Shown here: in pieces, positions 15,781-18,503 of the stretch | How positions within the stretch are numbered: position 1 is the stretch's first letter | Layout of the letters: the number at the start of each line of letters is the position of its first letter | Source of the DNA: a virus | Lineage: Duplodnaviria; Heunggongvirae; Uroviricota; Caudoviricetes | Virus record (IMG/VR): IMGVR_UViG_3300042691_028414 | Length of the DNA: 64,000 nt | Strand: one strand, 5' to 3' | The notes under the pieces: model-generated | Told to the model about the DNA's origin: nothing | Seen by the model: only the letters and a program-made list of their open reading frames with translations | Databases searched by the model: none | Translations under genes and position numbers: made by a program

Positions 15781-16128
15781 TTAGTATTTAATAATCCAAG
15801 TCACTCCCTTTCCAAAATTGGGTGATGCATGAGAATTAATATCTTTAGATTCTAATGATTCTATTTTATCCATTATTTTTTCACGATTACCGTCAACAGG
15901 TGACGGTAATTGAGTAATAATGTATTTAACATATTTAGTATATTTAAGTTTCTTTCCTGAAACATCACCCTTTTTAATCTCAATCTTACACCCACTAGGT
16001 AAACCCAATTTTTTTCTCAACTGAAAAACGGTTAAGTCTAATAAATCAGATTTAGATTCATTTTCTTTAATCACACGATTAACAATTCTTGTCAAGTCTG
16101 ATTCGGTTAGTTTAATTATTTTTTTCAT
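15781..16128 (-). CDS. leader-peptide family member, small basic cargo
   Basis: MKKIIKLTESDLTRIVNRVIKE followed by cargo. The third gene of a tandem paralog triplet. Confidence 0.55.
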   Translation of the reverse strand: MKKIIKLTESDLTRIVNRVIKENESKSDLLDLTVFQLRKKLGLPSGCKIEIKKGDVSGKKLKYTKYVKYIITQLPSPVDGNREKIMDKIESLESKDINSHASPNFGKGVTWIIKY

Positions 16129-16132
16129 ATCA

Positions 16133-16465
16133 TTATTTTATATAAAACCAAAATGAGTTTTTACTTGCGTTACCAAGTTTAAATAAGTTACTTTCAAATT
16201 TATTATTTAGTTTCTCAATGATTTCTTCAGCAATCTCTTCGGTGTCATCCCCCGATTGTTTAAAACTAACCATAAATCTGTCATATGGTTTATCTGACGA
16301 TTCTTTATAACCACCTTTCCATTCATCCTCACCAATGTAATCATCCATAAGTTTTTTTAACACATCCTCAATTTTTTCATTTGATGGTTTTTTCTTATTT
16401 TCATTGATCACTCGTTTAACAATCCTTGTTAAATCTGATTCGGTTAATCTTATTACTTTTTTCAT
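16133..16465 (-). CDS. leader-peptide family member
   Basis: MKKVIRLTESDLTRIVKRVINE. Confidence 0.55.
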   Translation of the reverse strand: MKKVIRLTESDLTRIVKRVINENKKKPSNEKIEDVLKKLMDDYIGEDEWKGGYKESSDKPYDRFMVSFKQSGDDTEEIAEEIIEKLNNKFESNLFKLGNASKNSFWFYIK

Positions 16466-16469
16466 AACA

Positions 16470-16766
16470 TTAAATATCTAAATTTTTAACTTTAATTCCT
16501 TTTGTATTTCTTTTTAAACCTGATGGTGTTGTATCGTCAGTTCTAAAACTACAAACAACATCAAACATAGCTTTTTTAAAATGGTGGAATGTTCCTTTTT
16601 TTCCATGGTATTCACCCTTTATTTCCAATTCACCATAAACATCTTCCAATTCTTCTTTTGACATCTTTAATATTTCAGATTTACTTTGTTTCTTTTTGGA
16701 TTCGGTAATAACCCTTTGGATTATTCTTGTCAAGTCTGATTCGGTTAGTCTTATTACTTTTTTCAT
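16470..16766 (-). CDS. leader-peptide family member
   Basis: MKKVIRLTESDLTRIIQRVITE; TAAATTTG-TAAA-ATG upstream. Confidence 0.55.
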   Translation of the reverse strand: MKKVIRLTESDLTRIIQRVITESKKKQSKSEILKMSKEELEDVYGELEIKGEYHGKKGTFHHFKKAMFDVVCSFRTDDTTPSGLKRNTKGIKVKNLDI

Positions 16767-16800
16767 TTTACAAATTTATTAATAAATATCTGATTAAACA

Positions 16801-16835
16801 AAAAACCCCACTCTTATTTGAAGTGGGGTTTGTAA
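16801..16835. terminator. rho-independent terminator
   Basis: ccccactcttatttgaagtgggg hairpin. Confidence 0.6.
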
Positions 16836-16838
16836 AAT

Positions 16839-17207
16839 TTATTTCTTAATCGGAACTGTGTCAACTGGTTCAAGTGTCACTTTGGTGATTCCTTTTCTAA
16901 TGAAGTTAAGTTCCTTTGCGGTTCCGTAACTCAAATCAATCACAAAACTTGATGATTTTGGTAACCTGTCGTTGATCTTAACATATCTAACAGAATCATT
17001 ACTTGTGTTTGTTACTTTCACAATTGTTCCGAACTTAAAGTACTTATGAGCCGCAGTTAAACTGTCTTTGTGGAATAGTTCTCCTGATGATGTCTTTCTA
17101 CCTGTCCAATGTTGTCCGTAATAAGATGCGGTTCCTGTGTAGATTTTTTCTGATGATTTAAATGATAATAGTGTAATTAGTGGAATAAATAATAATAGTT
17201 TTTTCAT
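16839..17207 (-). CDS. secreted RlpA-like double-psi beta-barrel protein (lytic-transglycosylase-like)
   Basis: Signal peptide, then ASYYG...TSSGE...TAAH...VTN...VKINDRLP, which matches the RlpA/DPBB pattern. Confidence 0.55.
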   Translation of the reverse strand: MKKLLLFIPLITLLSFKSSEKIYTGTASYYGQHWTGRKTSSGELFHKDSLTAAHKYFKFGTIVKVTNTSNDSVRYVKINDRLPKSSSFVIDLSYGTAKELNFIRKGITKVTLEPVDTVPIKK

Positions 17208-17252
17208 ATTATGAATAATAAAAAATCCTCCACAAAAGTGAAGGATTATATT

Positions 17253-18503
17253 TTACCGTTTAAATTTAAACTCTTTTTCTATTTTTCTTTTTCCGTATTT
17301 TTTCTCCATTATTTGTTGGTGTAACTCCCAATTAAGAATTGATTCGTTGGTTTGTTCTTTTTCGTCAGGAATAAGTGAATATATTTTTACAAGTCGTTTA
17401 ATTAATTTTGTTGCAACATAGTTAAATCTTTCACATTCATCAACAAAGAACTGACTTTCTCTATTACGATATTTGGCAAGTTGATTTAAATATTTATGTC
17501 TAACTTTTTCCAATCCTTCATCGTTCTCACGCTTAACACCCATACCTAACATTCTCATAAAATTAGCCATTTCACTATCAACACTATCCGTCATTTTATC
17601 AAAAATATCTCTTTTAGCACTAATAAGATTAATATAAACTATATCCATAACTACCTTTATTTTTTCCTCTTCAGTCATATTTTCATAATCCACATCTGCG
17701 TGTTCTAATAAACCATCCACACGATCCATTTGATTATGTAATTCTTCCATAAAATGTTCAAAACTAAAATCTCTAATTTCTTTTAGTTCTTTAACAACAC
17801 TATCATTTTCAAAAAATTCTCTAAACTTTTCTCTTGTTACTCCAGTTAATTTCATTCTTGTTGCCATTTCAGTTGGTCTAACAAGATTTTCAACATATTG
17901 AATGAAATAACTATATCTCATAAATTCACTAATAACCGGAATTCCGAAGTTTAACCCTTGACTTGCATATGCTTGATAATCAGCATCTTTCCCTATCAAG
18001 TCAGTTGTCTTTTTTTGTTTATCAAACTTATGTTTAATTTCGTGAGCAATTACAGATATTAATTGAACTCTATCATTAGTAAAGTAATTATAAGGGTCTT
18101 GGGAATCCCAATCATCCCCATTTGATGCAAAATGTAATTGTAACTCAATTGTGTTATCCTGTTTATGAACCTTCATTAGTAGTTTTCTATCAAAATTAAA
18201 TTGATTTGCAACACCGGCTGATATCATAGTGAATGGTCCATCATATTCATCCATTTCGTGAACTTGAACTGCTAACTCTAATTCGTGTATTTTATAATCA
18301 GATATTGTTAAATCTAAATTATCTTCAGTAAATGTTTGTGTTGTGTCGTAATCATCCATACCTTTTAATAGGTTTAATATGATTTCATATAGTTCTTCAG
18401 CCGATTCAATGATTCCTTCAGGAACTCCAACGGCTTCATTCAGTAAGAGATTATTTACAATAATCTCAAGTTGATTTTCAGTAATGATTAAATTTTTCTT
18501 CAT
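17253..18503 (-). CDS. leader-peptide family member carrying a putative HExxH zinc metallopeptidase domain
   Basis: MKKNLIITENQLEIIVNNLLLNE leader; HEIKH motif in the cargo; TATATTTAT motif upstream. Confidence 0.45.
   Translation of the reverse strand: MKKNLIITENQLEIIVNNLLLNEAVGVPEGIIESAEELYEIILNLLKGMDDYDTTQTFTEDNLDLTISDYKIHELELAVQVHEMDEYDGPFTMISAGVANQFNFDRKLLMKVHKQDNTIELQLHFASNGDDWDSQDPYNYFTNDRVQLISVIAHEIKHKFDKQKKTTDLIGKDADYQAYASQGLNFGIPVISEFMRYSYFIQYVENLVRPTEMATRMKLTGVTREKFREFFENDSVVKELKEIRDFSFEHFMEELHNQMDRVDGLLEHADVDYENMTEEEKIKVVMDIVYINLISAKRDIFDKMTDSVDSEMANFMRMLGMGVKRENDEGLEKVRHKYLNQLAKYRNRESQFFVDECERFNYVATKLIKRLVKIYSLIPDEKEQTNESILNWELHQQIMEKKYGKRKIEKEFKFKR

Follow-up and report, generated by a model that had tools for sequence, protein, structure and literature searches.

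A short N-terminal leader on otherwise unrelated proteins of an uncultured T4-like phage lineage: a probable capsid-targeting propeptide

A stretch of 64,000 nucleotides (nt) from a tailed phage (Caudoviricetes; IMG/VR record IMGVR_UViG_3300042691_028414), in the following called the window, encodes a group of proteins that share an N-terminal leader but are otherwise unrelated. The leader has 22 amino acids (aa) in its canonical form and closes with an invariant Glu in an (L/I)-x-E context. We consider it likely that this leader is a T4-style capsid-targeting propeptide, which is attached to very diversified proteins that are packaged into the head and probably ejected. The same interpretation had been proposed in a first-pass annotation, made from the letters of the window alone, and all of its predictions that could be examined in silico were supported. 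The window has a G+C content of about 31% and is an AT-rich fragment of a large phage genome; the lineage is an uncultured, distantly T4-like myovirus.

Leader-bearing genes in the window

All open reading frames (ORFs) that had been listed as leader genes are present in the window (Table 1). The canonical leader is found in four minus-strand genes in the near-identical form MKKVIRLTESDLTRIVKRVI(N/K)E, and the four versions are described by the pattern MKK(V/I)I(R/K)LTESDL(T/I)(R/K)I(V/I)..(V/K)(I/L).E. An orthologue of 16470-16766 with 81% identity is part of a gene array in the related locus L025. Divergent versions of 20-23 aa, which were recognized with a leader hidden Markov model (HMM), begin the proteins encoded at 17253 and 25652. 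Two plus-strand genes carry short leaders of the pattern MNLQE[SN]IRRILRE, and homologues of 13891-14217 with the same leader were found in L019 and L025.

A position-specific scoring matrix (PSSM) of the 12 residues before the Glu was trained solely on leaders from other contigs, and the null consisted of all 1,327 internal 12-mers in the window that end in Glu; their top score is 10.3. Both short leaders exceed this value. The candidates at 43686, 36623, 20238 and 39629 fall into the top 0.2-0.5% of the null, and are plausible, statistically weak members of the group. For 20238-21074 the start codon is ambiguous, with an alternative ATG at 21098. More than 100 orthologues (46-100% identity) of 36623 keep its N-terminal motif, M[EK]L[VL]K[IV]LS.V[IV].E. 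The protein encoded at 36623 had been announced as a leucine-rich repeat (LRR) cargo: a weak LRR_14 match exists (E = 5.5e-4), but it is below the Pfam cut-off, and the leader scores only modestly (Table 1). A 480-aa poly-acidic cargo had also been announced; the 502-aa protein encoded at 30899-32407 has a very acidic mature part and a canonical leader.

Taken together, the window contains eight robust members and four or five plausible ones. The first-pass annotation had counted at least ten genes with a leader of about 22 aa. The leader is real, but its length is about 22 aa in six genes only, and the members beyond the robust eight are weak candidates.

A second recurrent N-terminus, MKIIITE(S/N)Q(Y/H)K..., was observed in several families (26548-26874 on the minus strand, L012, L019, L200, L201, L207, and L239). 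This N-terminus is similar to the leader's first half, and at times it has no clear hydrophobic-x-E end. The orthologue of 26548 in L032 (16200-16496) has no MKIIITE-type N-terminus.

Table 1. Leader genes, candidate leader genes and further features of the window, with the leader up to its closing Glu and the residue or residues that follow it.
Feature	Coordinates	Strand	Leader	After Glu	Remarks
Canonical leader gene, 115 aa	15781..16128	-	MKKIIKLTESDLTRIVNRVIKE	N	last in three-gene tandem
Canonical leader gene, 110 aa	16133..16465	-	MKKVIRLTESDLTRIVKRVINE	N	leader codons 1-22 at 16400-16465
Canonical leader gene, 98 aa	16470..16766	-	MKKVIRLTESDLTRIIQRVITE	S	first in three-gene tandem
Canonical leader, 502-aa protein	30899..32407	-	MKKVIRLTESDLIKIIKTKLNE	E	mature part very acidic, isoelectric point (pI) 4.2
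Divergent leader, conserved 416-aa protein	17253..18503	-	MKKNLIITENQLEIIVNNLLLNE	AVGVPEGI	leader HMM E = 1.8e-6
Divergent leader, 291-aa protein	25652..26527	-	MKIFLTEKQLKYLKSNLISE	S	leader HMM E = 6e-7
Short 13-aa leader, 149-aa protein	13439..13888	+	MNLQESIRRILRE	E	PSSM 19.8; upstream element present
Short 13-aa leader, 108-aa protein	13891..14217	+	MNLQENIRRILRE	E	PSSM 20.6
Candidate, 614-aa core protein	36623..38467	-	MKLVKILSSVIVE	N	PSSM 6.3, p = 0.004; upstream element present
Candidate absent from the first-pass list, 161-aa protein	39629..40114	+	MNLLPLLKSIIVE	S	PSSM 5.8
Candidate, 449-aa protein	43686..45035	-	MKSNTYYDNLFRKVLTE	T	PSSM 7.8, p = 0.002; upstream element 22 nt before ATG
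Weak candidate	20238..21074	-	MNIRRILISE	Q	too short for proper scoring; likeness to MNLQExIRRILRE by eye only
ATATTTAT element	16782..16789	-			22 nt upstream of the 16470-16766 start
ATATTTAT element	18508..18515	-			upstream of 17253-18503
Terminator-like hairpin	16803..16831	-			shortly before the element (16782..16789) of the three-gene tandem
Terminator-like hairpin	18519..18544	-			just upstream of the 17253-18503 element
Last window ORF	62445..63995	-			C-terminal two-thirds of a protein of about 812 aa that runs off the window; compare L081:9113-11551

Peptide-level conservation and the head maturation machinery

Codon usage was compared among 55 canonical copies of the leader, all non-redundant, which come from the window and from related contigs. 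The residues M1, K2, L7, E9, L12, and E22 are invariant, in spite of free use of synonymous codons: L7 is encoded by TTA (20 copies), CTT (17), or CTA (16), R18 by AGA (17), CGA (16), or CGT (10), and both AGR and CGN codons occur at R14 and R18. Codons for identical residues show a synonymous difference in 38% of the cases. Conservation is absent from the flanks, which were compared over 40 nt upstream and 60 nt downstream of the leader; the upstream flank is only AT-rich. The amino acid identity drops from 81% within the leader to an average of 8% over the 20 residues that follow E22, in agreement with the earlier statement that similarity ends at the Glu. Because codons vary synonymously, flanks are unconserved and similarity ends at the Glu, selection acts on the peptide and not on the DNA, and on these grounds a purely DNA- or RNA-level element is ruled out and the Glu is a sharp module boundary. 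Conservation of the 5' ends at the nucleotide level had also been reported. The first 33 nt of the four canonical genes do match the reported string with one to three mismatches (0 matches in 100 shuffles), but with the codons varying, the nucleotide sequence is not what is selected.

Counts with a hydrophobic-x-E regular expression gave only an about 4-fold N-terminal enrichment with many internal matches, and the HMM and the PSSM with nulls of internal segments were adopted. In the fetched loci, the leader HMM matched 102 of 2,602 non-redundant N-termini versus 3 of 17,850 internal 40-mers. The residue at position -3 from the predicted cut is I in 52 of the 55 canonical leaders and V or L in the others, and never S, A, or G. 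Closing motifs include VINE, VIKE, ILRE, and LLNE. The predicted mature proteins begin, for example, with NKKKPSNEK... or AVGVPEGIIESAEELYEIILNLLK, and the capsid protein with ATSEGSNGAFETVVFPIVR. AlphaFold2 predicts the leader as a helix of its own at the N-terminus, which has the Glu at its end and a low predicted local distance difference test (pLDDT) of 34-57 versus a well-folded body, as had been foreseen for the leader. The model of 16133 has a leader helix at residues 9-22 (low confidence), a loop and a compact domain at residues 29-110, and residues 1-20 of 17253 have a pLDDT below 50. Fold searches with the mature domains of 16133 and 17253 returned no meaningful match to solved folds.

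Leader-like N-termini of 13-22 aa are also present in three conserved families of the head module, which have a conserved mature N-terminus right after the Glu. A family of 420-460 aa, encoded upstream of TerL, has the sequence ...R(K/R)I(V/I)KE↓AP(V/I)DYGDY (the arrow denotes the predicted cut). In a family of 250-430 aa it is ...KKILRE↓ATSDSSGSRGSY, which resembles ...LINE↓ATSEGS of the capsid protein. The leaders of the RYMFFSNL family range from a 13-aa version (MNLNRIIKKVLKE) via MNRITSREINSLVRKIVNE to a canonical-type 22-aa version (MKKIIKLKESDLSMIIKKILRE). Since they replace each other within this orthologous family, short and long leaders are homologous, and the leader can vary in length, as would a disposable propeptide. 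Orthologues of 17253 begin with M.KIIITE.Q..L.V..LLSE↓AVGVPEG or with the shorter MKIIITENQLRLIKE↓AVGVPEG (15-aa variants).

The head proteins of Flavobacterium phage immuto served as queries to locate the head module of the lineage in the retrieved loci. Genes for TerL, the portal protein and the protease lie on L008, a locus that had been included for its canonical leader gene, and this leader gene (381 aa) begins 9 nt after the end of the protease gene. The protease (L008:10343-11068) belongs to Peptidase_S77 (80.6 bits versus a cut-off of 27), the T4 residues H85 and S140 are invariant columns of its alignment, and IMG/VR contains more than 600 relatives of it. Three contigs combine the protease with the canonical leader (L008/L193, L005/L221, which is a 257-kb contig, and L013/L252). 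A prohead protease of the gp21/U9 type had been predicted, and such an enzyme exists in the lineage. The capsid protein is a Gp23 member (246 bits). In the alignment with T4 gp23 the columns of Glu65 and Ala66, between which the T4 protein is cut, are invariant, and all 34 copies examined contain (F/H)LINE↓(A/S)T.. at these columns. Because this motif occupies the T4 columns, the protease of the lineage is expected to have a specificity for (L/I)-x-E and to cut behind it; every leader closes with this tripeptide, and the specificity expected by the first-pass annotation is thus in line with the capsid site. T4 gp21 cleaves after L/I-X-E (PMC9026906).

The density of (L/I)-x-E in the scaffold protein of about 500 aa shows no excess (12 observed versus 11.1 expected). 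A 237-aa protein of the head module (L199:8540-9253 and orthologues) contains 16 such motifs versus 7.7 expected and has the leader-like start MKFGIIKSKIENILTE↓S. Like T4 gp67 and gp68, it may belong to the core and be cleaved into fragments.

Distribution, cargo and expression of the tagged proteins

A search with one small leader protein retrieved more than 100 clusters that share the near-invariant leader alone. The profile search that had been proposed as a check returned thousands of otherwise unrelated phage proteins: in a set of 1.84 billion representatives, a profile of the four window leaders matched 6,290 clusters (50% identity), nearly always at residue 1. A back-translated leader pattern had matches in 30 loci of IMG/VR but in no cellular genome of the 185,579 that were scanned. 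Judged from these searches, the tag is virus-only and highly diversified. The leader genes form tandem arrays, with at least seven to nine genes in L025 and L010, and are also found as single insertions between baseplate genes, beside ribonucleotide-reductase genes and after the prohead protease gene. Some proteins contain two leaders (P0361, P0362, P0369, P0372, P0377, L025:9514-10836, L260:7702-9000, and L202:15102-16406), and in some of them the second copy lies inside the protein, without a start Met (...SYRRKKVIRLTESDL...). The two-leader proteins may be polyproteins that are resolved by the protease.

The cargo is mostly without recognizable domains. Among 61 diverse cargo proteins a Pfam domain was found in two, in both cases PG_binding_1, which is C-terminal in the leader-bearing proteins L012:5207-6988 (593 aa) and L017:2615-2965 (114 aa), and no toxin domain was detected in this set with Pfam. 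Pfam and PHROGs gave nothing significant for the listed window proteins, and a literature search for 'LTESDL' found no paper containing this string. The protein encoded at 17253-18503 had been labeled a putative HExxH metallopeptidase. Its HEIKH motif is invariant among orthologues as HE[ILM]KH, but neither a zincin fold nor a Pfam peptidase family was found, so that the label is unconfirmed.

An upstream element, ATATTTAT(A/T), is present within 45 nt upstream of 15 of the 110 window genes. It precedes 8 of 12 leader or candidate genes, compared to 7 of 98 other window genes (p = 6e-6), and none of the element-bearing window genes belongs to replication or nucleotide metabolism. In related loci the element has a fixed position 20-23 nt before the ATG of genes for TerL (10/10), the protease (38/42), a sheath-like protein (39/47), the scaffold protein (5/5), the 237-aa head-module protein (33/33), and the tail fibre (14/14), as well as for gp25- and gp6-like proteins. 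It is only about 11-13 nt from the ATG at 16133, 17253, 30899, and 13439. Of 56 canonical leader genes, 25 are preceded by the element, versus 393 of 2,080 other genes (19%). The element is probably a late promoter that is shared with virion genes. An extended form, ATATTTAT(A/T)..AAAA, was observed upstream of the window genes 60394, 32715, 47966, 42295, 41266, and 32502, and in L199, L221, and L234 before genes for TerL, the protease and the sheath-like protein. The element at 39629 comes after a terminator-like hairpin. Hairpins at 18519-18544 and 17224-17247 bracket 17253-18503 as a transcription unit of its own, and the latter hairpin also borders 16839-17207. This neighboring minus-strand gene, which lies between leader genes, encodes a DPBB_1 protein (RlpA-like lytic transglycosylase fold) with a classical signal peptide, MKKLLLFIPLITLLSF.

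The window encodes a sigma-70-type factor, DnaJ, SbcC- and Mre11-like proteins, a primase, an RNA ligase, several DNA methylases, glutamine synthetase, thioredoxin, glutaredoxin, and an amidase. The minus-strand genes 28585-29784, 40292-41221, 50178-50978, and 42934-43107 were assigned to a glutamine-synthetase-like protein, a full-length DnaJ, a sigma-70-type factor with regions 1.2, 2, and 4, and an Hc1 histone-like protein, respectively. This uncultured lineage is very abundant; for single proteins, IMG/VR contains between 469 and more than 600 relatives. An identical protein is present on contigs of up to 311,818 bp, and the window itself is part of a 166.7-kb contig (ERZ27247979 k141_998446). 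A megablast search with 18 kb against 50,697 phage records had no match and thus revealed no close cultured relative. The closest cultured relative is Flavobacterium phage vB_FspM_immuto (25% identity of the gp6-like baseplate protein), which suggests a host from the Bacteroidota; the window contains no tRNA genes and hence no host hint from this side. Contigs of the lineage abound in lakes and seas, and freshwater or marine Bacteroidota are candidate hosts. The annotated genome of immuto includes gp20, a 'prohead core protein serine protease' and gp23. The leader family is not expanded in this phage, which has a single possible case (MKLDLLKKLIKE↓A).

Further observations concern other genes. 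A tail-fibre and baseplate module lies directly beyond the end of the window (past 64000). A two-gene cassette on the opposite strand, 60394-61730 (+), encodes a 73-aa protein (MPTDITINN...) and a large Gly/Ser/Thr-rich protein of 357 to 1,164 aa. It is hypervariable among relatives (L032, L039, L055, and L086) and is probably a receptor-binding module. The product of the plus-strand gene 19215-19802, which is opposite to its neighbors, is a non-specific endonuclease for DNA and RNA (Endonuclease_NS, E = 5e-24), and its N-terminus resembles a signal peptide. On L221 (contig IMGVR_UViG_3300042455_001086), the portal ORF (4052-8074) has 1,340 aa versus about 520-617 aa in orthologues, and the TerL ORF (6-2987) at least 993 aa versus about 590 aa; inteins or other insertions may account for these sizes.

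Comparison with known systems and alternative explanations

The closest parallel is the capsid-targeting sequence (CTS) of the T4 proteins IPI, IPII, IPIII, and Alt. In both cases a short N-terminal propeptide that ends with (L/I)-x-E is common to unrelated proteins, an S77/gp21-type protease occurs together with a gp23-type capsid protein that has the same motif at the predicted cut, and the cargo is diverse, fast-evolving and encoded in variable regions. The T4 CTS, MKTYQEFIAE, has only the closing I-x-E in common with the leader, and we treat the leader as an analogue of the CTS and not as a demonstrable homologue. There are also clear differences. The canonical leader has 22 aa, with versions of 13-23 aa, compared to 10-19 aa in T4, and it is bipartite, with LTES(D/E)L in one half and R(I/V)(I/L)xE in the other. 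Eight to 13 tagged genes per 64 kb, arrays of nine or more genes and more than 6,000 cargo families contrast with three to a few internal proteins per T-even phage. The cargo is mostly acidic, in contrast to the basic T4 proteins, and occasionally has two leaders. The lineage is uncultured, and its core proteins are only about 25-30% identical to those of T4 or Flavobacterium phage immuto. In T4, the internal proteins reach the core by means of propeptides of 10-19 aa, which gp21 cuts off at L/I-X-E, with the targeting determinants in the N-terminal part and the processing determinants at the end (PMC9026906).

Two further systems are similar in some respects. In giant phages of the phiKZ type (201phi2-1, phiKZ, and SPN3US), many head proteins are cut C-terminal to Glu by a gp21-related protease, and a large mass of ejected protein is packaged in the head (PMC9026906; PMC5694885). 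However, their motif is S/A(/G)-x-E, while I or L occupies this position here, so that the leaders are not of the phiKZ type, and their propeptides are not one conserved tag that is transferable between unrelated proteins. Polymorphic effectors, e.g., MuF-fused phage toxins and the effectors of type VI and type VII secretion systems, also combine a constant delivery tag with a hypervariable payload and are encoded in gene arrays. In contrast, the tag described here has only about 22 aa, is predicted to be cleaved by a capsid protease, is confined to one phage lineage and was found without toxin domains.

Core binding, cleavage, encapsidation, ejection, and effector function are inferred. The leader genes would be transcribed together with the virion structural genes, as the common upstream element suggests. 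By analogy with the T4 CTS, the amphipathic N-terminal helix would bind to the scaffolding core of the prohead, presumably with the first half of the leader, (I/V)(R/K)LTES(D/E)L, as the targeting determinant, and the attached protein would be built into the head. The gp21-type Peptidase_S77 would then cut after the invariant Glu of (I/L/V)-(I/L)-x-E and free the mature protein inside the capsid. The mature proteins would be ejected with the DNA into the next host or its periplasm, where they might act as first-minute effectors or counter-defence proteins. If the tag alone suffices for delivery, any protein could be recruited, which would account for the genes in tandem arrays and for a cargo of more than 6,000 unrelated families.

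Several observations weigh against this function. The protease and capsid genes are located outside of the window, on related contigs with proteins that are 63-94% identical to those of the window. No cultured phage with the canonical leader was found when the leader protein was used for a tblastn search of the 50,697 phage records. The residue after the Glu in canonical leaders is mostly N, Q, or S, in contrast to A at the site of the capsid protein and in the conserved head-module proteins. The pI is below 6 in 53 of 86 cargo proteins, while the internal proteins of T4 are basic and DNA-associated, and some cargo proteins have hydrophobic, transmembrane-like segments, several of them C-terminal. 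The upstream element precedes only 45% of the canonical leader genes, although tandem co-transcription may explain the missing ones, and it is found within 45 nt of the capsid protein gene in only 3 of 25 cases.

Other explanations were weighed as well. One is that the leader is indeed a propeptide for the prohead protease, but on components of assembly only, i.e., core or scaffold accessories that are degraded or kept in the head and are not delivered to the host. Several leader families are conserved core genes in the head module, 17253 and 36623 are conserved in hundreds of relatives, and the T4 core proteins gp22, gp67, and gp68 are gp21 substrates as well (PMC9026906). We nevertheless regard this explanation as unlikely, because it would not lead one to expect more than 6,000 unrelated families, most of them orphans, encoded in hypervariable tandem arrays, because the PG_binding_1 cargo points to an action on the host envelope, and because the diverse CTS-bearing proteins of T4 are the ejected ones (PMC3012670).

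It is also quite unlikely that the leader is retained uncleaved as an N-terminal docking or oligomerisation helix for another partner, such as a phage chaperone (e.g., the encoded DnaJ), the baseplate or another virion part, or a host factor. The predicted amphipathic helix, the leader genes between baseplate genes, the rare internal copies without Met and the phage-encoded DnaJ would all be in accord with such a role. It leaves unexplained why conservation ends exactly at an invariant Glu that, after I/L/V-I/L-x, forms the motif at the T4-aligned maturation site of the capsid protein. Moreover, conserved mature N-termini (APVDYGDY, ATSDSSGSRGSY, and AVGVPEG) start right after this Glu, and the variable length within one orthologous family fits a disposable propeptide better.

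The leader genes could further have a conserved 5' end for cassette shuffling at the DNA level, with terminator, promoter and leader as a recombination arm, or for an mRNA or translation-initiation element. A hairpin, the ATATTTAT element and the conserved first 33 nt recur before different genes, leader genes are inserted at many genome positions, and PeSL cassettes, which are mobile and regulatory, are known in T4-type phages (PMC2839356). This is very unlikely to be the primary function, as residues are fixed while the codons are freely synonymous and the upstream 40 nt are unconserved beyond AT-richness; shuffling is perhaps a by-product of the common sequence and would leave the peptide-level selection unexplained. 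For the same reasons, synonymous variation and unconserved flanks, a recombination site, a promoter extension and an RNA element were rejected as candidates.

Least probable of all is an export signal or a leader of the type found in bacteriocins or ribosomally synthesised and post-translationally modified peptides (RiPPs): L-[ST]-x-x-[DE]-L-x-x-I loosely recalls double-glycine leaders (LTESDLTRI resembles LSxxELxxI superficially), and PG_binding_1 cargo would need access to the periplasm, but a terminal Gly-Gly or Gly-Ala and a hydrophobic core are missing, charged residues occur every two to four positions, the cargo has up to 600 aa, none of the 185,579 scanned cellular genomes contains the tag, and no peptidase-ABC exporter genes were noted near leader genes among the scanned proteins. 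A double-glycine leader was rejected on account of the x-E end, the cellular genomes and the cargo size, and a Sec, Tat, or lipoprotein signal peptide on account of the interspersed E9, D11, R14, K17, and R18; genuine signal peptides in the window, such as that of 16839-17207, look different.

A capsid-targeting propeptide is a mechanism known in kind from T4. What is new is the tag, with its two-part form of 22 aa and the short versions that can take its place, together with the extent of the diversification and the abundant uncultured clade in which the tag occurs. We tentatively put forward that the tag could be a universal address label, with which an abundant uncultured aquatic T4-like clade loads thousands of unrelated, mostly orphan proteins into its capsids and injects them into the host. 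The cargo would include LRR, peptidoglycan-binding and membrane-active proteins and would represent a phage counterpart of the effector repertoires of secretion systems. Its scale, with more than 6,000 families, arrays of about ten or more genes per genome and two-leader polyproteins, would be far beyond that of the described T4 internal proteins. A still more novel possibility is that tagged proteins are sent to some structure different from the prohead core.

Should the tag prove to be a capsid-targeting sequence, a motif of 22 residues would by itself flag thousands of proteins that are delivered into cells with the phage DNA, and nearly all tagged proteins are orphans. Proteins delivered in this way would act before phage gene expression and would be prime candidates for anti-restriction, anti-CRISPR and other counter-defence functions as well as for host take-over. 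The predicted cleavage sites can be checked directly in viral metaproteomes. The internal-protein strategy of T4 would then be ancient and greatly scalable in environmental phages, and the tag would be a ready-made means to load foreign proteins into the capsids of a new group of phages.

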